From the IMG/VR virus record IMGVR_UViG_3300024179_000001: 64,000 nt of DNA; one strand, written 5' to 3'. The translations under genes and the position numbers were made by a program. The number at the start of each line of letters is the position of its first letter. Position 1 is the stretch's first letter. Positions 7,300-23,825 of the stretch are shown here, piece after piece. This stretch comes from an uncultured virus (IMG/VR IMGVR_UViG_3300024179_000001). Its lineage: Duplodnaviria > Heunggongvirae > Uroviricota > Caudoviricetes. The notes beneath the pieces were generated by a model that searched no databases, was not told the origin of the DNA, and saw nothing but the letters and a program-made list of their open reading frames with translations.

Positions 7300-8208
7300 G
7301 TGAAGAAAATCTACCCAGCCTTGTTGTTCACACTCGCCCTGTGTCTCGCTCCCTTTTCAATGGCTCAAGTCAGCTTGTGGCCATCCACAACAGTTCCAGC
7401 GGTTCCAGATAACATAGACACTCGGCCTGCCGAATTGGGCGTGCAGTTCAAATCGGACGTCGCTGGAAAAATCACCGCGCTGCGCTTTTACAAAGGAGCC
7501 CACAATACCGGGACGCACACTGGCCACCTCTGGAGCAGCACGGGAACACTGCTGGCGAGCGCCACCTTCACAAGCGAGACGGCTACGGGCTGGCAGCAGG
7601 TTACGCTTTCAACTCCTATTGCGATTTCAGCCAACACGATCTACGTGGCTTCGTATTTCTCTCCAACCGGAAATTTCAGTTACACGCGTCCATATTTCAC
7701 GGTGAGCTGGGACACTCCACCGCTTCATGCTCCAGCCAGCACGACGACACTTCTGAATGGCGTCTATGCCTATGGAGCGACGAGCACTTTTCCCTCTTCG
7801 AGTTTTCAGCAATCAAATTATTACGCGGACATAGTGTTCGTCTCTGGTCCACAATTTCCCACGTCAGTCACCACGACTGTCGGTCCTGTCGGCATCACGC
7901 TAACTTGCGGATCCACAGGGTCCGTAACACTTGGACCTTTGACTTTCACCTGCAACGCAATCGGACCAGCGCACAACGTGCTGGTTGCCTGGACGGCGTC
8001 TACGAGCGTGGTGGTCGGATACAACGTCTACCGCAGTACGACGAGCGGCACTGGCTACGCCAAGATCAACACGTCGCTCATCAGCGCCCTGAACTACACG
8101 GACGGAAACGTGCAAAGCGGAACCACTTACTTCTATGTGGCCACAGCCGTGGACTCGAGCGGTGCAGAGAGTGCGTTTTCAAATCAGGGCACGGCGGTCA
8201 TCCCGTAA
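7300..8208 (+). CDS. secreted DUF4082 + fibronectin type III protein
   Basis: AAGGAG SD with GTG start; signal peptide; ELGVQFKSDVAGKITALRFYK (DUF4082); GYNVYRSTTSG...YFYVATAVDSSGAESAFSN (FN3). Confidence 0.85.
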   Translation: MKKIYPALLFTLALCLAPFSMAQVSLWPSTTVPAVPDNIDTRPAELGVQFKSDVAGKITALRFYKGAHNTGTHTGHLWSSTGTLLASATFTSETATGWQQVTLSTPIAISANTIYVASYFSPTGNFSYTRPYFTVSWDTPPLHAPASTTTLLNGVYAYGATSTFPSSSFQQSNYYADIVFVSGPQFPTSVTTTVGPVGITLTCGSTGSVTLGPLTFTCNAIGPAHNVLVAWTASTSVVVGYNVYRSTTSGTGYAKINTSLISALNYTDGNVQSGTTYFYVATAVDSSGAESAFSNQGTAVIP

Positions 8209-8534
8209 TGAACCCCAAGAAAAAGTCACTGGGGATCTATCTGACGACGGGGAGGGATGAGATCTTGGTTCACATCCCGCTTCGTTTCGTCCTCGAAGAC
8301 ATCCCGCAACCTCCAAATCTGGAGCAGCTCAAACGGGCTTACCTGACAAAGCGCGAAGAAGAAGTTCTGCACGGCGTGATGGAAGGGAAGGGCAACAAGG
8401 AAATCGCCGAGGATATACATCTGACCGAACGCACCGTGAAATTTCACATATCGAGTCTTCTGGCGAAGCACAGGGTTGTCTCGCGCATTCAGCTGTACGG
8501 CATCTACGCAAACGCAGGTGGAGAACGGCAATGA
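8208..8534 (+). CDS. LuxR-type HTH transcriptional regulator
   Basis: LTKREEEVL...GKGNKEIAEDIHLTERTVKFHISSLLAK; ATG overlaps upstream TAA. Confidence 0.9.
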   Translation: MNPKKKSLGIYLTTGRDEILVHIPLRFVLEDIPQPPNLEQLKRAYLTKREEEVLHGVMEGKGNKEIAEDIHLTERTVKFHISSLLAKHRVVSRIQLYGIYANAGGERQ

Positions 8535-8947
8535 TGAGTCTCTGGGAATGGTTCATGCAAAATACGCTGCTGATTTTCGGTGTACTCTTCGCGTTCTACA
8601 TCATCGCGTTCAATAAATTACCCGGCATCACGGGATGGCAGGCCTTTCTCGACAGCTTTGAAAGCAAGGGCGGCCAACTCTTGTTGCTGTGGGTATCGGA
8701 CGGTTTAGTCCTTCTGCTGCTCATTCATTTCTGGAAACTATTCGATGCCCAACTCCAGACCACCATCGTTGGAATTCTTTCGGCGGTGAACGGCGCTTTC
8801 CTTGGTGCGATTGGTGCACGTAACACCAACGAAGCCGGAGTGAATGGAAGTGGGAAGGGCCCAGCAACACCTGCACCAGCACCAGCACCTGCGCCGAAGC
8901 CGTCGCCGGCGCCGGCGCCGACTGCTGTGACTGACGTGCATCCGTAA
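8531..8947 (+). CDS. multi-TM membrane protein, holin candidate
   Basis: About three hydrophobic segments, Pro-Ala tail, upstream of the endolysin. Confidence 0.55.
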   Translation: MMSLWEWFMQNTLLIFGVLFAFYIIAFNKLPGITGWQAFLDSFESKGGQLLLLWVSDGLVLLLLIHFWKLFDAQLQTTIVGILSAVNGAFLGAIGARNTNEAGVNGSGKGPATPAPAPAPAPKPSPAPAPTAVTDVHP

Positions 8948-8964
8948 AAACAAGGGGCCACTTA

Positions 8965-9273
8965 ATGGGGATCCACTGGGACGGCACGATCACGCTGGGG
9001 AACGTGATTACGTTCTTTCTTTTCGCACTCGCGCTTATCAATTTTTGGAGAGCGCAAAGTGCTGCAAAAGAAGCGCAGTTGGAAGCCAAAAAGGATCTCG
9101 AGTGGCGAATCGCCAATCTTGAAGTTTGGCGCAAAGAGCACATGATCGACTCGGATGCGAGAGATCTTCTTCTAAGGAAGCTCGATGGCGCTACAGAGCT
9201 TCTCGAGTATCTGGTAAAAGAGAGGCATCGGGACAACGAGGGCAGGCGCAAGCCGAGAGAGGGACAGTACTGA
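8965..9273 (+). CDS. single-TM coiled-coil protein (lysis-associated)
   Basis: N-terminal TM segment then charged helix; adjacent to the endolysin. Confidence 0.55.
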   Translation: MGIHWDGTITLGNVITFFLFALALINFWRAQSAAKEAQLEAKKDLEWRIANLEVWRKEHMIDSDARDLLLRKLDGATELLEYLVKERHRDNEGRRKPREGQY

Positions 9274-9770
9274 TGCAGTTTTCTGAGCACTTCGATAGCA
9301 GCGAATTCGAGATGGACGCGCCGATTCCGGCAGAGTGCGTGGATGTGGCGATAGAGTTCTGCACGCTGGTCCTCGAGCCGATCCGCGCTTTCATCGATGA
9401 ACCCATGGATATCACGAGCGGCTACAGGCCACCAGGCGCGAACGCAGCGACGCATGGCGCCTTACACAGTGAGCACATCTGGACCGCACGCCATTGTGCC
9501 GCAGATTTCACTTTCAATACTTCAATCGGCAGGATTTCTTCCATCAGGGCGCTCTTCAATCTAATCCGCGAAAGCCCTTCGATCCCGTTCCATCAGGTGA
9601 TCCTCGAGCACGGCGCCAGCGGCACGAGCATCATTCACGTCAGCTACAACCTCGACAAGATCGGCGTTCGCCAAGCACTGGAAGGTGCCACTCACAACGC
9701 GTCGCCCTACACTTCGTGGGAAGTTGCCACGTATATTCCAACCGCCCCCGGGGGACAGGAGAACGCGTGA
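9273..9770 (+). CDS. endolysin, peptidase M15A family
   Basis: HFDSSEF, LEPIR, ITSGYR, SEH, AADF and IHVS motifs. Confidence 0.85.
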
Positions 9771-9982
9771 TGGCTGAGATCGAAACTGGAACGGTAAAGT
9801 GGTTCAACGCTTCAAAAGGTTTCGGCTTTATCGGCCGTGACCGGAAGCCGGACGTCTTTGTGCACTACAGCGGGATCGCTGGGGACGGATACAAGAGCCT
9901 GAACGAAGGCGATCAGGTAGAATTTGAGGTCACCAAGGGGCCGAAGGGCCAACAGGCCTCAAACGTCAGAAAGATCGATTAG
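9770..9982 (+). CDS. csp: cold-shock domain protein
   Basis: [16 protein letters not shown] (RNP1) and DVFVHYS (RNP2); 70 aa. Confidence 0.95.
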
Positions 9983-9990
9983 GAGAAATC

Positions 9991-10479
9991 ATGAAGAGAA
10001 ATCGCGCTGTACTCGCAGTGCTGCTGGTCGTCGTGTCTCTTGCCGGATGCGCCGCCAGAGTGAAAAACGTCACAGACCTGCCGCCGGGAGTGACGCAGAA
10101 GCAGGCTCAGGACTGGGATGCGGCGGTGCAGGATCTAAATAAGATCGCGGCGATCACCTCGACGGCGCGCACTTCGATTATCGAACTGCATACCGCTGGG
10201 CTCCTGAAGGACGGTCCACCGTACGTCACCGCGCTCACTGTTGTCGGAAAGATGGATGAGCTGCAGCTCGCAGCCAGTAACGTCCTGAAGCAGTCGCCGA
10301 ACAATTTCACGGATTCGACGAAGGCCAAGGTGAAGGATTACCTGACGCAGATCTCGGCGCAGATCCAGACGCTGAACCAGACCGGGGTGACCGGGATCAA
10401 GAATCCGAACTCTCAGCAGCAGATCTCGGATCTGATCACGCAGATCACTGCGCTCGTCACACTTGTCCTGTCGCTGTAA
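9991..10479 (+). CDS. lipoprotein (possible spanin component)
   Basis: AGGAG SD; signal peptide with LAGC lipobox; follows the endolysin. Confidence 0.65.
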   Translation: MKRNRAVLAVLLVVVSLAGCAARVKNVTDLPPGVTQKQAQDWDAAVQDLNKIAAITSTARTSIIELHTAGLLKDGPPYVTALTVVGKMDELQLAASNVLKQSPNNFTDSTKAKVKDYLTQISAQIQTLNQTGVTGIKNPNSQQQISDLITQITALVTLVLSL

Positions 10480-10552
10480 AAATTCAATCCCTCGGTTAAA
10501 TTTCAACGGGTGCATAAAATTTCAAGCATCGAAGTCCGAAAGGAAGGAAAGT

Positions 10553-10873
10553 ATGGGAACGAATCCGGTAACACCGAAGCAGACGGCATCGAATGTCCTG
10601 AACGCGCTGGCCGAGGCGAATGGCTACGTCAATCTGGCGCTGCAGTTGGGGACAGCTCTGATCCCGGTAGGGAAGGCGCTCGTGACGAAGATCAAGGACG
10701 CGACGACAGGGGTCGAGACGATCAGCTACCAGCTACTGCTGGCAGAGGATCAGGCCACTCTCTCAGCTATCGATGCTTCAAGCGTAGCTGACCTGCAGGC
10801 GATCAACGCGGAGCTGGTAAGGCAAGGAGCCCAACCCCTGCCCGTTCCGGGCCCTACGGGACCCCAAGGCTGA
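10553..10873 (+). CDS. hypothetical helical protein
   Basis: AAGGAAGG SD before ATG 10553. Confidence 0.6.
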   Translation: MGTNPVTPKQTASNVLNALAEANGYVNLALQLGTALIPVGKALVTKIKDATTGVETISYQLLLAEDQATLSAIDASSVADLQAINAELVRQGAQPLPVPGPTGPQG

Positions 10874-10934
10874 TCTGTTCAAAATTAGATAGCATCCTCC
10901 GGGTGTTTGAGAGACACTGCACTCGGAGGATCCT

Positions 10935-11096
10935 ATGGAATCTCACAACAGTGCTCCCCTACGTCTGATTCTGATGGTTCTTGCCGTCGTTCTGTTCTTC
11001 ATTGCGGCAACTGCGTGGCCAGCGCCAGTTGAGCCGTATCGCAACAAGTTAATTGCTGGCGGATTGTTCTGCTGGTCTGTGTCCACGTTCTTCTGA
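10935..11096 (+). CDS. 53-aa two-TM small membrane protein (below ORF-track cutoff)
   Basis: GGAGG SD; MESHNSAPLRLILMVLAVVLFFIAATAWPAPVEPYRNKLIAGGLFCWSVSTFF. Confidence 0.7.
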   Translation: MESHNSAPLRLILMVLAVVLFFIAATAWPAPVEPYRNKLIAGGLFCWSVSTFF

Positions 11097-11181
11097 TCTG
11101 CTTGTCCCCTACTGAACAGACAGCTCCTATGAGCCTCGCTACGATTGCGTTTGATCGAGGTAGAGCTCGTCAGGAGTTGAA

Positions 11182-11619
11182 ATGAAGAATCCACTTTACA
11201 TCACGGAATGCGTCAGAAAAGACGGCGTCACTTACCTCACAGTCCTTGGAAACGAATTGACCGAAGCGGACGAAGGCGGAACGGTGAAAGTGATGGGAGT
11301 TCAGAACGAAACGGTGAACGGCGAGTTCCCGATTCTCAAGATCATCCCACCGGACACGATTCGATTTCTCCAACCCAACCAACTGGACATTCCTGCAGGT
11401 ATCAGAGGTGGTGCGATTTCAACGGAAGCACCGGAGCACCCAAAGGCCGTGGTAGTCGTGATCCCGCCGAAACCAGTGGAAGCGCCAAAGGCAGCGACCG
11501 CTCCAGCGCAACCTGCAGTGAAGCCGGAATCTAAGGCCGAAGAGAAGCGTGAAGAAAAACACGAAGTGAAGAATGGGAAGAAGAACGGAAATCATAAAGC
11601 CCACGCCGCGAAGCGGTAA
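11182..11619 (+). CDS. hypothetical protein with beta-module and basic Ala/Lys tail
   Basis: AGGAG SD; last gene before the strand switch. Confidence 0.65.
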   Translation: MKNPLYITECVRKDGVTYLTVLGNELTEADEGGTVKVMGVQNETVNGEFPILKIIPPDTIRFLQPNQLDIPAGIRGGAISTEAPEHPKAVVVVIPPKPVEAPKAATAPAQPAVKPESKAEEKREEKHEVKNGKKNGNHKAHAAKR

Positions 11620-18457: not shown

Positions 18458-18565
18458 TTAGAGTTTGAACCACCAAACCATCAACTTAATCAGCAGCACT
18501 GCGATCACTGGTCCCATGACCATCGCGGCCAGAACTTGCCCTCCGCGCAAATTGAGTTCGCGCAT
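18458..18565 (-). CDS. 35-aa membrane peptide
   Basis: GAGGAGG SD; MRELNLRGGQVLAAMVMGPVIAVLLIKLMVWWFKL. Confidence 0.5.
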   Translation of the reverse strand: MRELNLRGGQVLAAMVMGPVIAVLLIKLMVWWFKL

Positions 18566-18567
18566 GT

Positions 18568-18936
18568 CTACAATTCCTCCTCGCGCATCGTCCAGTGTTT
18601 CTTCTCGCCTCGTGGCCCACGTAATGCCCAACTTACAAGAAAGACGCGGCCGCCTGCCCGTTTCCAGATCTGGAATTCCGGGATCCCGAGGATCTTCTCC
18701 TTGTGCTCGGAGTGGCTGGCCCCGGGACAGCACTGCACGAGTGCAATGGACCCCTTCAGTAAAACAGGAGGATCGGTTGGTGGCCGCATTGCGAGGATGT
18801 CTCCGAAGTGGAACGCGTCGATCCGCTTTCCGCCGCCGGGGATCCCCGGAATCGTTACCCATTTCTCTACGACACAGGCGCTCCAGCCGTTATCCCGGAG
18901 CGCCTTGAGTGTGCGTTGCGTGGCGTTGGTCTTCAT
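18568..18936 (-). CDS. PD-(D/E)xK nuclease, Hjc-like resolvase candidate
   Basis: RTLKALRDNGW..VVEKW...DAFHFGDILAM...LVQC. Confidence 0.65.
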   Translation of the reverse strand: MKTNATQRTLKALRDNGWSACVVEKWVTIPGIPGGGKRIDAFHFGDILAMRPPTDPPVLLKGSIALVQCCPGASHSEHKEKILGIPEFQIWKRAGGRVFLVSWALRGPRGEKKHWTMREEEL

Positions 18937-19151
18937 TTTCCGTACTTCGCAATCATCAAGGTGCCGAACAGCACGGCGCCAAGGAGCGAGAAGAGGAGAA
19001 GGAATACTCCCATCCAGATAGCGTTGGTGCGGCGATGCAGGCGATAGGCCGCAGTCCAAGTATCGTTCCGCCACTTCCTCCCGGCCGTGCGGTCCACCAG
19101 ATCCTGCTCGGTCAGAAGTTTCTTGCGGTACCCCAGTTCCTTGTAGATCAC
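18933..19151 (-). CDS. small membrane protein
   Basis: C-terminal TM segment. Confidence 0.55.
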   Translation of the reverse strand: MIYKELGYRKKLLTEQDLVDRTAGRKWRNDTWTAAYRLHRRTNAIWMGVFLLLFSLLGAVLFGTLMIAKYGK

Positions 19152-19411
19152 GAGCGTTTGCCCCCTTGAGAGATTTCAAATGCGAGTTCGTCGATTTCTT
19201 TGAGCACCTGAGTTACTGCGGAGATCCGCGCGTCGTGATCCTTTCTGGCCTGCGCGTAGGCCTCAGTTCCTTGCGGATAGTAATCGCGGCCATTCGGGTA
19301 CATCTCTGTCAGCGCGTGAAGCGCTTTGCGGAGATGGAAATTGGCCTCGAGTGCCTGCTCGAGGAGCTCCTGCTTCGACGTGCCGTTCAGATGGATCGTT
19401 GGGATGATCAC
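19148..19411 (-). CDS. hypothetical phage protein
   Basis: PTIHLNGTS...PNGRDYYPQG; GTG start overlaps upstream stop. Confidence 0.65.
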   Translation of the reverse strand: MIIPTIHLNGTSKQELLEQALEANFHLRKALHALTEMYPNGRDYYPQGTEAYAQARKDHDARISAVTQVLKEIDELAFEISQGGKRS

Positions 19412-19509
19412 TTGCCTGCTCTCCGTTCCAGTTCTTTCGCCGCCATCCTGCACCACAGGTAGATCTTCAGGACCGCGTACGCAATGAAGATGTCAAAACC
19501 TATTTGCAT
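19408..19509 (-). CDS. 33-aa hydrophobic peptide
   Basis: GAGGAGG SD; MQIGFDIFIAYAVLKIYLWCRMAAKELERRAGK. Confidence 0.5.
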   Translation of the reverse strand: MQIGFDIFIAYAVLKIYLWCRMAAKELERRAGK

Positions 19510-19625
19510 GTGAATGCCTCCTCGAAAATTTCGGCCATCCAGGCAAAGAGCTCCGCGCGTCGTGCTGCTTCTTCGCGCAGATACTGCTCGGCACAGGCCA
19601 GCTCGATGGTGCTATCATCAGCCAC

Positions 19626-20036
19626 ATGGATTACAGGCTGAAGTGGCAGCGAGAGCACCCCAAGTCCCACCGAAGAGCACAAGCTGCCTACTACCGAAAG
19701 AAAAAACGAACGAGTAAATTTAGAGAAGCACGACTTAAAAAACAACGTGCTTACTTCGTTAGACTTAAAGAAGAAGCGTTTGAACACTACGGCAAATCGT
19801 GTAAATGCTGCGGGGAGATTGAGCCTCTTTTCTTGACTCTTCACCATAAAAATAACGACGGGGCAAGGCATCGGAAGGCGTTGGGGAATCGGGGGAACGC
19901 GATCTACCAATGGCTCCGAAAGCATAACTATCCTCCAATCTTTGAAACGATGTGCAATAACTGCAATCGCGGAATCTGGCTCAACCACGGTGTGTGTCCA
20001 CATCGGGCCTCATCAGTACGCGCTAAACGCGTATAG
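19626..20036 (+). CDS. HNH-type endonuclease, inverted within the early operon
   Basis: YGKSCKCCGE...FLTLHHKNNDG...MCNNCN...GVCPH; AT-richer than neighbours. Confidence 0.75.
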   Translation: MDYRLKWQREHPKSHRRAQAAYYRKKKRTSKFREARLKKQRAYFVRLKEEAFEHYGKSCKCCGEIEPLFLTLHHKNNDGARHRKALGNRGNAIYQWLRKHNYPPIFETMCNNCNRGIWLNHGVCPHRASSVRAKRV

Positions 20037-20070
20037 ACGGGGTGGAGGGAAGCAACCCCGCCTTTCGGCC
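20006..20070 (-). ncRNA. hammerhead ribozyme (type II)
   Basis: Minus strand GGCC-GAA-AGGCGGGGU-loop-ACCCCGUCU-A-UACGCG-uuuag-CGCGUA-CUGAUGA-GGCC; complete core and three paired stems. Confidence 0.9.
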
Positions 20071-20814
20071 TTACCGTTTCACGTACTCTGTGAACAGGCG
20101 ACCGAGATCTTGAGATGCAGCGAAGCGCGTGCTGACGGGCATCTGCTTCTGCACCTCAGTGAAGGCATTGTGCAAGGACCAGAGGTTCCGGGGAGCGAAG
20201 TCCTCGTGGCGTGGTTCATTCCATTCCTTGACGACGTCGGTGATGAACCGGACAGGCATGATCTCTTTCTGCACGAAGGCGTCGAGGATCAGGGCCTTGG
20301 CTTCGTTGACGCTGACGCCCCGATTCCGCATGGCGTCGATCTCATTCACGAGGGCAACCGTGTGCTGCTGCCAGCGCGCCATCCCCTGCGTGATCTGATC
20401 GATCAGGTTGAACCCTGTGGAATGCTTCTGCTTCAGGACGATGGAGTCACCACGGAAGCACAGGTTGTCGCAGACGAAGACCGAAGCTCCGGCCACCATC
20501 TGGATCGACATCGTTTTGTTGTTCGCATGGCGGAAGCCGAGGGCAAGGACGAACTCCTTGCGGACGATGTGCTCGATCTTCATCACACCGAAAAGCATTT
20601 CGCCGTCGCGGCGTATCGCGAACTGCTCGTCGGCGATCTTCATGTTGAGGTAGCTGACGCTCTTCTCGATGGTATCGACGAGTTCGATGTGCTTGATCGG
20701 CCTGAAGGTGGACGTGGGGAGATTCGTCTCCGACAGTTCGATGTGCGACAGCTGCTCGCGAGTAACTCGATCCGAATTCACTTGCGACGACATTAGGGAT
20801 GCATGGGCTTCCAT
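20071..20814 (-). CDS. DUF932-family protein
   Basis: PIKHIELV...LGFRHANNKTMS...FVCDNL...KH...LWSLHNAFTE. Confidence 0.8.
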   Translation of the reverse strand: MEAHASLMSSQVNSDRVTREQLSHIELSETNLPTSTFRPIKHIELVDTIEKSVSYLNMKIADEQFAIRRDGEMLFGVMKIEHIVRKEFVLALGFRHANNKTMSIQMVAGASVFVCDNLCFRGDSIVLKQKHSTGFNLIDQITQGMARWQQHTVALVNEIDAMRNRGVSVNEAKALILDAFVQKEIMPVRFITDVVKEWNEPRHEDFAPRNLWSLHNAFTEVQKQMPVSTRFAASQDLGRLFTEYVKR

Positions 20815-20888
20815 TTTTTCTTCTCCTGACAAAGCCTCTGGCCTCGTCGGCCTGCCTCCTCTGTTGCCAGAGGAAGCAGGACAAGCGG

Positions 20889-21632
20889 TCAGCGGTTGAA
20901 CTTCAACCAGTGGATGATCATGCGAACTGCGGTACCGTAAAACTCGTGCGTGAGATCAGGTGGAAAATCTCCGGTGCTAACCTCGGGGAATTTTGCGGCG
21001 ACAACGGTCCAAAACTCTTCGATGGCGTCCTTGGCGGCGACACTGATTTGTTCCTTCTGTTTGTCGAGCCCGATTCTGGCGACTTCTTCCCACTGTTCCT
21101 TCTCGAATGCCATGGCGATTTCCATCACATTTACCGCCGCACTACTCGCATCATCGAAGTCAATTTCCTTGGTCGTGTTGATGCTCCTACCTTCGAGGAA
21201 GTCACCGTTCACATAAACGTCAGCGCCCCAATTCACGTCCGAGGTGCCGAACCGGAGCATGACGCCGCCGTTGAACTTCACATCGATACAATAAATCCCG
21301 CCACCAGTGTGGACGGTTTCGGCATCAAGAGACGCATCGGTGCGAAGATGGGCGGCGACTTCTTCGAGGAAAGCTTCCTCATTTGGGTCTGGTGCGCCAT
21401 CACGTTGATTTTCAATCTTGATGATTTGGGCCACGATCAGATCCGGCTGGGCACAGTTGCCCGGGAGATCTGTCTCGGCGCCGTTGCCGTCCTCGTCGCT
21501 CCAGCCCCAGTTCCCATTCGCCGTGCCGTAGCTGCGTTCACCAAGGGCAATGTAACCCGGATATTCGTAAGTGGCTCCGAAGCCAGCAGCCCGGAGTTGC
21601 GTCACAACTTCCTTCATGATTGTGCTGTTCAT
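20889..21632 (-). CDS. acidic early protein, unknown function
   Basis: GGAGG SD; HTGGGIYC and GDFPPD motifs. Confidence 0.7.
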   Translation of the reverse strand: MNSTIMKEVVTQLRAAGFGATYEYPGYIALGERSYGTANGNWGWSDEDGNGAETDLPGNCAQPDLIVAQIIKIENQRDGAPDPNEEAFLEEVAAHLRTDASLDAETVHTGGGIYCIDVKFNGGVMLRFGTSDVNWGADVYVNGDFLEGRSINTTKEIDFDDASSAAVNVMEIAMAFEKEQWEEVARIGLDKQKEQISVAAKDAIEEFWTVVAAKFPEVSTGDFPPDLTHEFYGTAVRMIIHWLKFNR

Positions 21633-21856
21633 GCTGCCCTCCGTACGGCCTTGATGTGCTTACAGCCGCTGAAAGTGTTGGTGTCGAGGTGAGGAAGCTT
21701 GCGGTACATGAAGTCCGCGCAATTGCAGAAGAAGGTGGCTTTCCGTTCGCGAGTGACGCGCTGAACAGTGTAGCGTTTCCGCGCATCAGTCTCGGATTGG
21801 ACGTAGAAGGTTTTGGTGCCGCGCACCGGATTGCGTTTTGCAGTTGCGATTTTCAT
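21629..21856 (-). CDS. SWIM zinc-finger protein
   Basis: FFCNCADF...CKHIKAV. Confidence 0.8.
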   Translation of the reverse strand: MKIATAKRNPVRGTKTFYVQSETDARKRYTVQRVTRERKATFFCNCADFMYRKLPHLDTNTFSGCKHIKAVRRAA

Positions 21857-22062
21857 TAGAGCACCACCACTTCGACATGATGGGAACCGCAGCAGCGGCA
21901 AACAACGAACTCCTGATCCTCGAAGGATCCGTAGCCCTGCAGGATCTTGAAGGAGTTGGTCGCTGCGTTGTTCAGGGTGCCGTTGCCACAGGTCTTGCAA
22001 ATGGCTGCGAAGGAATCGGGATTTTCGGGGGTAACTTCGACTTGCTGTTCGTTGGCTCTCAT
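21856..22062 (-). CDS. small zinc-ribbon protein, first gene of the leftward operon
   Basis: AGGAGG SD; CKTCG...CRCCGS. Confidence 0.65.
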   Translation of the reverse strand: MRANEQQVEVTPENPDSFAAICKTCGNGTLNNAATNSFKILQGYGSFEDQEFVVCRCCGSHHVEVVVL

Positions 22063-22104
22063 CAGTCCTCCTGATTGATGCCGCATGCTTACCTTACTAT
22101 AGAT

Positions 22105-22184
22105 ATTATGCCTGAATGCAGTACACGAAGTCAACAGAAATCCACAACCTTAGTATTGCTGAGATCGATAAATTGCAGTACCCT
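22105..22184. promoter_or_regulatory. divergent promoter/operator region
   Basis: Leftward TTGACT-N18-CATAAT (22134-22105); rightward TTGCTG-N17-TACCCT (22156-22184); repeated TGCAGTAC. Confidence 0.65.
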
Positions 22185-22190
22185 CCGGAC

Positions 22191-22364
22191 ATGGCCAAGA
22201 AACAGCTACCGACCAAGCAGGACGCAGTGCTCTCTATCCGACTGTATTCACACGAGTTAAATACGATCAAAATAGCCGCCAAAACGAGCAATAGATCTGT
22301 GTCCAAGTGGGTAACAGACAAATGTATGGCGGCTGCGAAACGCACGGCAGCCCTCGCGAAATAA
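22191..22364 (+). CDS. ribbon-helix-helix repressor (DUF1778-like), probably leaderless
   Basis: KQDAVLSIRL...IKIAAKTSNRSVSKWV; ATG 6 nt after the putative -10. Confidence 0.7.
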   Translation: MAKKQLPTKQDAVLSIRLYSHELNTIKIAAKTSNRSVSKWVTDKCMAAAKRTAALAK

Positions 22365-22378
22365 AGGACAGAACTGGA

Positions 22379-22684
22379 ATGGCGTACATGACGAGAAGGC
22401 GAGGGGTCGGATCGTACCAGCACGCAGCAAGACGTGCTCACCGGATTGTTCAGCGTGCAGTACAGTCTGGTCGCTTGCCAAATCTCAGGCGCCGAAGGAT
22501 CAGATGTTCTGATTGTAGAAAACGCGCAGAGCTATACGATCATCGTGATTACGCAAAACCTCTTCGCGTGAATCCTGTTTGCCCTGGTTGCAATCGTCGC
22601 CGTGGAAAAGCTATCGTGAGTCGCACGGTTCCACGTCGAATGACAGAAGCCGAGATGGAGAAATATCTGAGGTCGTTTCACTGA
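22379..22684 (+). CDS. HNH-like zinc-finger protein
   Basis: AHRIVQRAVQSGRL...CSDC...HRDYAKPLRVNPVCPGCN. Confidence 0.65.
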   Translation: MAYMTRRRGVGSYQHAARRAHRIVQRAVQSGRLPNLRRRRIRCSDCRKRAELYDHRDYAKPLRVNPVCPGCNRRRGKAIVSRTVPRRMTEAEMEKYLRSFH

Positions 22685-22862: not shown

Positions 22863-23825
22863 GTGACAGCCTACTACAATGAGAACGACAAGTTCATGGC
22901 AGCGTGGCTCCGTGAACTGATGAAAGAGAATCTGATCGCGCCCGGGGAGATCGATGATCGAAGCATCAAGGACGTCGATGAAAAAGATCTCGAGGGATTC
23001 ACTCAGTGCCACTTCTTTGCCGGAGTCGGAGTCTGGAGTTACGCGCTTAGAAAAGCTGGATGGCCAGACGACCTTCCTGTTTGGACAGGATCCTGTCCCT
23101 GCTCATCATTCAGTGCAAGCGGGAAGCGGCAAGGCTTCAGCGATCCGCGTCACCTGTGGCCCACATGGGGCAGGCTCATTCAAAAGTGTCTCCCTGTCGT
23201 TGTCTTTGGCGAGCAGGTTGCGAAAAAAGACGGATACGCTTGGTTCGACCTTGTATCTTCAGAACTGGAAACAGAAGGCTACACCGTCGGGGCGACGGAT
23301 CTACCAGCTTGTGGCGTCGGCGCGCCCCATCTCCGTAACCGGATTTACTTCGTGGCCCACACCAACCGCTTTATCATTCGCGGACTCACATCGGCCGGGA
23401 AACAATCGCTACATGAACACGGTGACGAAACTGGTGGGATGGTCGACGCCGAATGGAGACGATGCGAACAACGGAACGCGCGTCTCGGGAGAGTTCAAGA
23501 GTCTGACACGCGACGCGCACTTGACAGGATGGGTCTCACCATCGGCGAGGGACTGGAAGGACACGCCCGGGATGTCGCGAACGGGAAAGAAAAACAGGAA
23601 GCGACTCGACCAGCTCCCGCGTCAGGCGCACTTAACGGATTCTGGAAAGAAGACGCCCTCTGGATCCACTGCGAAGACAAAACACTTCGGCCTACTCGAT
23701 CCGGCATTTTCCCTCTGGCTGATGGGACTCCCAATCGCGTGGGTTGTTTGCGGGGAGCGGGTAACGCCCTTGTCGCGCCGGCGGCGCAGGCGTTCATAGA
23801 ATCTTTTATCGAGGTGATGCACTAA
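22863..23825 (+). CDS. DNA cytosine-5 methyltransferase, catalytic (alpha) chain, permuted
   Basis: HFFAGVG (I), GSCPC (IV), GEQV (VI), PHLRNRIYFVA (VIII), LRGAGNA (X). Confidence 0.85.
   Translation: MTAYYNENDKFMAAWLRELMKENLIAPGEIDDRSIKDVDEKDLEGFTQCHFFAGVGVWSYALRKAGWPDDLPVWTGSCPCSSFSASGKRQGFSDPRHLWPTWGRLIQKCLPVVVFGEQVAKKDGYAWFDLVSSELETEGYTVGATDLPACGVGAPHLRNRIYFVAHTNRFIIRGLTSAGKQSLHEHGDETGGMVDAEWRRCEQRNARLGRVQESDTRRALDRMGLTIGEGLEGHARDVANGKEKQEATRPAPASGALNGFWKEDALWIHCEDKTLRPTRSGIFPLADGTPNRVGCLRGAGNALVAPAAQAFIESFIEVMH
22954..23799 (+). CDS. C5-MTase beta chain encoded in the +1 frame (TRD repeats + motif IX)
   Basis: WPTP/GWSTP/GWVSPSARDWKD repeats and LDPAFSLWLMGLPIAW; true start uncertain. 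Confidence 0.7.
   Translation: MIEASRTSMKKISRDSLSATSLPESESGVTRLEKLDGQTTFLFGQDPVPAHHSVQAGSGKASAIRVTCGPHGAGSFKSVSLSLSLASRLRKKTDTLGSTLYLQNWKQKATPSGRRIYQLVASARPISVTGFTSWPTPTALSFADSHRPGNNRYMNTVTKLVGWSTPNGDDANNGTRVSGEFKSLTRDAHLTGWVSPSARDWKDTPGMSRTGKKNRKRLDQLPRQAHLTDSGKKTPSGSTAKTKHFGLLDPAFSLWLMGLPIAWVVCGERVTPLSRRRRRRS

Follow-up and report, generated by a model that had tools for sequence, protein, structure and literature searches.

A probably active type II hammerhead ribozyme flush with a DUF932 stop codon in a soil phage

The DUF932 locus and its hammerhead

The window analysed here, a stretch of 64,000 nucleotides, is most of a 66,446-bp virus record found in soil metagenomes (16 runs, four of them possibly the source); no RNA runs are listed among these 16. 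A block on its minus strand holds small ORFs together with DUF932, KTSC and RecT genes. The DUF932 gene (20071..20814, minus strand; PF06067, 23.6 bits for a cut-off of 23) is preceded by a gene for a 247-aa protein, for which a profile search yielded neither name nor function. A sigma-70-like promoter match (22105..22134, minus strand) reads into this early operon about 2 kb before the ribozyme, but it is no better than chance, with one match in 18800-22600 versus 1.9 expected in shuffles. On the opposite strand lies an HNH endonuclease gene (19626..20036, plus strand), and after it on the early strand a small conserved ORF of 41 aa (19500..19625, minus strand) with a homologue in the related locus L001 (52% over 33 aa). 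Among GTDB genomes, a Terracidiphilus MAG contig carries the closest DUF932 (L294, 70%), and the next seven (46-49%) are also from Acidobacteriota, so that the host probably belongs to this phylum. Elsewhere in the window, a second small endonuclease-like gene (phrog_2340; 22307-22684, plus strand) sits beside the divergent early promoter region, and a 281-aa ORF (22954-23799), read in a different frame of the same strand, covers most of a cytosine methylase ORF (22863-23825, plus strand).

Directly after the DUF932 stop codon, the minus strand carries a type II hammerhead ribozyme (20006..20070). It reads, 5' to 3', as the first arm of stem II (20070-20067), GAAA (20066-20063), stem III (20063-20055 with 20043-20035; 8 bp plus A15.1-U16.1), the triplet CUA with A17 at 20034, stem I (20033-20028 with 20022-20017; 6 bp and a 5-nt loop), the core CUGAUGA (20016-20010) and the second arm of the 4-bp stem II (20009-20006). 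Loop III (20054-20044) has 11 nt, is C/U-rich and resembles an anti-Shine-Dalgarno sequence. Loops close stems I and III while stem II is open, which is the type II topology, and the features that define hammerheads (a CUGANGA core, GAAA, and a U-H triplet with A15.1-U16.1) are all there. Cleavage is predicted between 20034 and 20033. Core, topology, cleavage site and overlaps are as described in the original prediction, each element at its place on the minus strand.

At each of three stringencies, a descriptor covering all three hammerhead permutations found this motif as its sole match in the 66,446-bp genome. Among dinucleotide shuffles, 0/60 had a match at the observed stem lengths, and 1/60 and 2/60 at the looser settings; a far looser descriptor added one weak type III match in the real genome, near 33,640. 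The minimum free energy structure of a 77-nt piece has the three-stem shape, with unremarkable stability (z -1.37). The hammerhead is very probably capable of catalysis. An exact second copy of the 7-nt core lies just past the other end of the HNH gene (19621-19615, minus strand); it is a chance occurrence or the remnant of a second ribozyme.

Relatives and a family of phage hammerheads

Hammerheads flush with the same stop codon were found in both distinct close relatives, L001/L002 (DUF932 69%) and L294 (70%). Compared with these, all three stems (6, 4 and 8 bp) covary through double changes: pairs 1-3 of stem I differ on both sides and are fully compensated, and stem III is re-paired, with 11 and 9 bp in the relatives and 8 in the window. 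The L001 copy has an additional U after A9, a tolerated variant known from viroid work and shared by 19 of 119 copies of the family described below. More distant loci, L003 and L092 (DUF932 53%), were without a hammerhead.

Beyond this lineage the association thins out. Of 138 distinct DUF932 3' ends in viral and metagenome loci, three have a stop-linked hammerhead (L001, L004 and L045), as does one of 80 DUF932 genome loci (L294). The linkage of DUF932 and ribozyme, left for checking in relatives by the original prediction, is therefore tight in the window's lineage and only sporadic outside it. A ribozyme-first pattern search of 401 genomes of L294's family gave three matches, two of them hammerheads, and the new one (L385) again follows a distant DUF932, so that DUF932 recurs as a host gene for the ribozyme. 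This L385 copy (G315:C34, around 179507) is flush with the stop and is followed by AAA-type and recombinase-like ORFs, their translations read by eye; the locus looks like a small integrated element. A class-wide pattern matched 21 of 401 genomes (including the unpublished G490), with no new canonical hammerhead by eye. Five genomes of the class (L402-L404, L406, L407) carry a 64-nt motif that has pieces of the core but lacks a U-H triplet before its last stem; it is possibly a variant, or coding sequence. An Rfam search of 20 DUF932 loci for other ribozyme classes behind the gene returned two tRNAs only.

A wider family was collected with a pattern fixing the core and stem II alone, run on 17 of 64 parts of the viral collection. 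It returned 131 viral loci, 95 of which fold as full hammerheads. Pattern loci and DUF932 loci together gave 119 distinct copies, the window copy excluded. Position 1.7 is U in 115/119, the base before stem II is A in 118/119, and stem I with its loop spans 17 nt in 101/119, although none of these three features was specified in the pattern. The window copy has U1.7 at 20027 and A at 20071; its CUA triplet recurs in a single family copy (1/119). The A at 20071 is also the last base of the DUF932 stop codon TAA (20071..20073, minus strand), and is the predicted partner of U1.7.

Conservation of the two positions suggests that U1.7 and this A form a tertiary pair in the window copy. O'Rourke, Estell and Scott reportedly described in 2015 hammerheads activated by one U1.7-A trans-Hoogsteen pair. 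The window resembles such ribozymes in having a U seven nt past the cleavage site and an A directly 5' of the stem II arm leading into GAAA. It differs from them in that their A belongs to a closed GNRA loop II, whereas in the window stem II is open and the stop codon supplies the A. The trans-Hoogsteen contact in hammerheads is described in PMC9217987, and Figure S5 of Perreault 2011 may already count a U-A contact.

Placement against a stop codon recurs in the family. ORFs of at least 50 codons end at offset -1 or 0 in 29 of the 76 copies with sufficient upstream DNA, and of the stop triplets at these two offsets 29/35 terminate such ORFs, versus 13/66 at offsets -40 to -10. Start codons 0-4 nt past stem II are not enriched (8 over five positions in 80 copies, about background). 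The possibility that the ribozyme's own GAGG serves as Shine-Dalgarno sequence of the next gene was considered and dropped; the spacing allowed it before the HNH insertion, but family starts are near background. Among the named genes upstream of family copies are RadC, ArdC and Mu Gam, in keeping with early or anti-defence regions. A Pfam scan found DUF932 in 0/93 upstream ORFs, though it also missed the known DUF932 fragment of L287.

A search with the Rfam hammerhead models, the first check proposed with the original prediction, left the window without a match, both at the gathering threshold and at E<=10. RF02276 (Hammerhead_II, threshold 37 bits) was also unmatched in L001, L004 and L045, and in 20 sibling loci it gave four matches, at 2/20 loci, with 37.3-39.3 bits, barely over threshold. 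The L004 locus (G003 7431-11325) carries nine type II hammerheads in 3.9 kb, mostly followed by a purine-rich Shine-Dalgarno sequence, and Rfam finds none of them. Rfam thus misses most of a common set of phage hammerheads. Nor was a pseudoknot of at least 4 bp between loop I and the 3' tail found in the window copy by inspection; across the family, pseudoknot potential was 21/117, the same as with shuffled tails (21/117). The motif had been called canonical, a term that suits its core but, on both these counts, not its periphery.

Of the 119 family copies, 23 have a tail behind stem II whose sequence complements the first five bases of the core, and L294 has one too (examples are L001 3790-3806, L294 2527-2542, L165, L170 and L240). 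This complementarity covaries with N7 (18 C, 5 U, none mismatched), and the window copy is without the tail. A complementary tail could refold the 3' product and block religation.

An HNH gene reading into the ribozyme

The HNH gene (phrog_2255, E 6e-6; unmatched in Pfam and NCBIfam) has the invariant His, Asn and Cys columns of the fold, and its phage relatives include 32 annotated records. Its GC content is 47%, compared with 55-57% in the flanks. It overlaps the hammerhead by 31 nt: the final ten codons together with the stop are antisense to stem II, core, stem I and triplet, and the stop itself is the exact complement of the cleavage triplet. Homology to its four closest relatives, which are longer at both ends, stops at a Cys-Pro-His motif. 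This alignment, in which homology ends before the ribozyme antisense begins, supports the suggestion that the HNH gene borrowed its C-terminus from the ribozyme. That suggestion had been posed as an alternative to processing of the early polycistron, yet both can hold. Selection of the HNH stop to match the triplet need not be invoked, the next in-frame stop being 18 codons on. Conserved His/Asn/Cys motifs, lower GC and a patchy distribution among relatives are shared with freestanding phage HNH endonucleases (phrog_2255), from which this one differs in being antisense to the operon, shorter at both ends and ending in ribozyme antisense. Neither an evident Shine-Dalgarno sequence nor a plus-strand promoter match was found for it.

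Both distinct close relatives, L001 and L294, carry the ribozyme without HNH at the locus, so the HNH gene very probably came later. It probably inserted in antisense orientation 2 nt beyond stem II, its frame continuing through the ribozyme until the complement of the triplet ends it, and is likely not the reason for the motif. A 6-bp direct repeat at the two ends of the HNH gene (left copy 19622..19627, right copy 19998..20003 and 2 nt from stem II, both plus strand) is suggestive, a 6-mer being shared by 3.3% of random pairs of 16-nt windows. No junction skipping the HNH gene and no exact empty allele was found in seven distinct runs, and an HNH-led search of viral contigs found no relatives.

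The overlap raises the question of whether ribozyme and HNH gene form one mobile element, in which the ribozyme would, for example, limit antisense read-through or free an element RNA. A divergent strain with 110 differences over 18500-21644 has only 2 in 19100-20450 and none in 19100-20082; this identical tract is consistent with recent transfer, and would imply that the HNH gene and the ribozyme moved together recently. However, the tract spans neighbouring genes too, a hammerhead is lacking at L101, the only other locus with an HNH homologue, and L001 and L294 have the ribozyme alone. The mobile-element reading is thereby largely refuted, and we regard it as very improbable.

Two further frames were noticed. 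An ATG 2 nt past stem II opens a stop-free frame of 167 codons (20003-19500, minus strand) that runs antisense through the whole HNH gene, and shares its reading frame with the small conserved ORF, itself otherwise lacking a Shine-Dalgarno sequence; it may be a shadow frame or a route for translating the small ORF. In L294, an ORF at 505-852 has HNH-like Cys/His motifs by eye, but is unmatched in NCBIfam. Its end shows the same Arg-Arg-Ala-Ala-stop/RBS overlap as the unrelated window gene at that place, which may make it a second case of a borrowed C-terminus.

Probable cleavage of the early transcript and its possible control

As our main explanation, which we hold with reasonable confidence, the hammerhead flush with the DUF932 stop would cut the early polycistronic minus-strand RNA at 20034/20033. 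A stem III hairpin bearing a 2',3'-cyclic phosphate would then close the upstream product, and the downstream product would carry a 5'-OH on a leading stem I hairpin. Stability and translation of each part would become independent of the other, as has been proposed for other prophage hammerheads. Speed would come from the single U1.7-A contact, made through the last A of the stop codon, rather than from a pseudoknot. In L001 and L294 the ribozyme is followed by a tail and a Shine-Dalgarno sequence; the window has lost both, and the downstream product may for this reason no longer start with a translated gene.

Such processing would fit published cases. Perreault 2011 (PMC3088659) presents prophage hammerheads of the same layout, which were proposed to cut polycistronic RNA, and reports that clustered prophage hammerheads cleave in vitro and in E. 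coli; the stop-flush layout of phage hammerheads is thus known since 2011. The window copy shares with those and with RF02276 the core, the permutation and an intergenic position in a phage operon of small genes. It differs from them in being unmatched by RF02276 and pseudoknot-free, with a long stem III, a conserved 11-nt loop and a single genomic copy. In the non-subscription literature we found no report of a DUF932-linked hammerhead, of one overlapping an HNH gene or of an anti-Shine-Dalgarno loop III.

Fold predictions complicate the picture. The predicted probability of the active fold in the window is 0.70 for the ribozyme alone, 0.21 with 30 nt of upstream RNA and below 0.001 with 60 nt, compared with family medians of 0.77, 0.28 and 0.10. 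At 60 nt of naked upstream sequence the energy cost of reaching the active fold is 7.5 kcal/mol, and just 3 of 116 family copies have a lower probability of it. These predictions, made with ViennaRNA, which ignores tertiary energy, count against simple constitutive cutting. Cleavage of the early transcript in vivo nevertheless appears likely to us.

Might the competing structure itself be regulatory? The predicted partner of 20070-20065 is a segment of DUF932 Leu-Gly-Arg codons (20100..20105, minus strand). Where the RNA is not being translated, these codons would pair with stem II and the GA of the core before the ribozyme is fully transcribed, and cleavage would follow only once a ribosome has melted the helix and left the stop, in which case cleavage would report DUF932 translation. 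The 6-bp helix is predicted with pair probabilities of 0.89-1.0 in the window, 0.8-1.0 in L294 and 0.35-0.8, depending on context, in L001. Masking the upstream RNA restores the active fold to 0.70-0.96 (0.70 in the window), and the tertiary A is part of the stop codon. Near the DUF932 end, synonymous identity is also somewhat raised (14/19, 15/19 and 17/18, versus 62-67% overall). However, L003 has the same Leu-Gly codons without a hammerhead, so that coding could explain the match, and the three orthologues are not independent. ViennaRNA's neglect of tertiary energy applies here too, and the family median also falls with 60 nt upstream; the blocking helix itself is predicted mostly within the window's lineage. 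Gating by translation is for these reasons a tentative proposal, which we think somewhat doubtful.

The poor folding could instead mark decay: the HNH insertion would have removed the tail and downstream RBS and disturbed the fold, leaving a motif that survives mainly as the last codons of the HNH gene. The lost tail and Shine-Dalgarno sequence and the rare CUA triplet are in line with this, as is the active-fold probability of only 0.05-0.08 with the upstream masked and the HNH-derived tail present (family medians 0.42-0.63). Yet core, U1.7, tertiary A and all stems are intact, the three pair changes in stem I relative to the relatives are fully compensated, and the borrowed residues lie beyond the conserved HNH motif. 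That the ribozyme is a relic seems quite unlikely, and processing of the early transcript remains our preferred reading.

Loop III was examined as a possible antisense element. The hairpin at the 3' end of the upstream product would pair with the RBS of the gene before DUF932 and silence it, in cis or in trans. Loop III is identical in L294 (11/11) and nearly so in L001 (9/11), while stem III differs; DUF932 synonymous identity, for comparison, is about 63%. A similar loop occurs in 1/119 other family copies, the L001 orthologue. The best partner of loop III on the whole 66-kb minus strand is the RBS and first base of the gene for the 247-aa protein (21632..21642, minus strand; 10/11 pairs, -17.1 kcal/mol), an energy reached in 114/3000, 28/3000 and 15/2000 null trials (0.75-3.8%), and in L294 the best partner on its own strand is likewise that RBS. 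On the other hand, the pairing was found post hoc, two plus-strand sites bind the loop better (-20.2 and -17.7), and the RBS also forms the end of the preceding gene, which is another reason for its conservation. The signal is absent from L001 (-9.5; 1837/3000 random loops equal), whose loop binds the window RBS equally well (-9.6), so that there is no covariation. A 10-bp duplex within a closed 11-nt loop is, moreover, sterically doubtful. A search for additional loop III orthologues gave ten pattern matches, with hammerheads only in the two known contigs. Silencing through loop III is thus improbable in our estimate.

The other end of the DUF932 gene also carries a structured RNA. A two-hairpin leader (20828..20882, minus strand) lies directly before the DUF932 Shine-Dalgarno sequence and after the upstream stop, with counterparts in L001 (2930-2976) and L294 (1671-1715). 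Comparison of the three genomes shows double-sided changes at 6 of 19 pairs; the apex of the second hairpin is invariant. Rfam left the leader unmatched, and among 15 distinct matches in viral contigs the only one that pairs is the known one. Possible roles are those of an operator, a 5' stabiliser or a processing site. Leader, translation-fired hammerhead and an anti-Shine-Dalgarno 3' hairpin silencing the upstream early gene might together place DUF932 in an RNA-controlled cassette of this Acidobacteriota phage lineage. We consider this combination unlikely; if true, it would amount to a ribozyme-made timer for early gene expression.

Taken by its sequence, the hammerhead is real, probably active, and in a known setting. 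The biological role of phage hammerheads is called open in De la Pena 2017 and Weinberg 2019, and the window copy does not settle it. It does provide a simple test case, a single copy with two natural orthologues, in which three specific features, the stop-codon A, the coding-region blocking helix and loop III, can be mutated.
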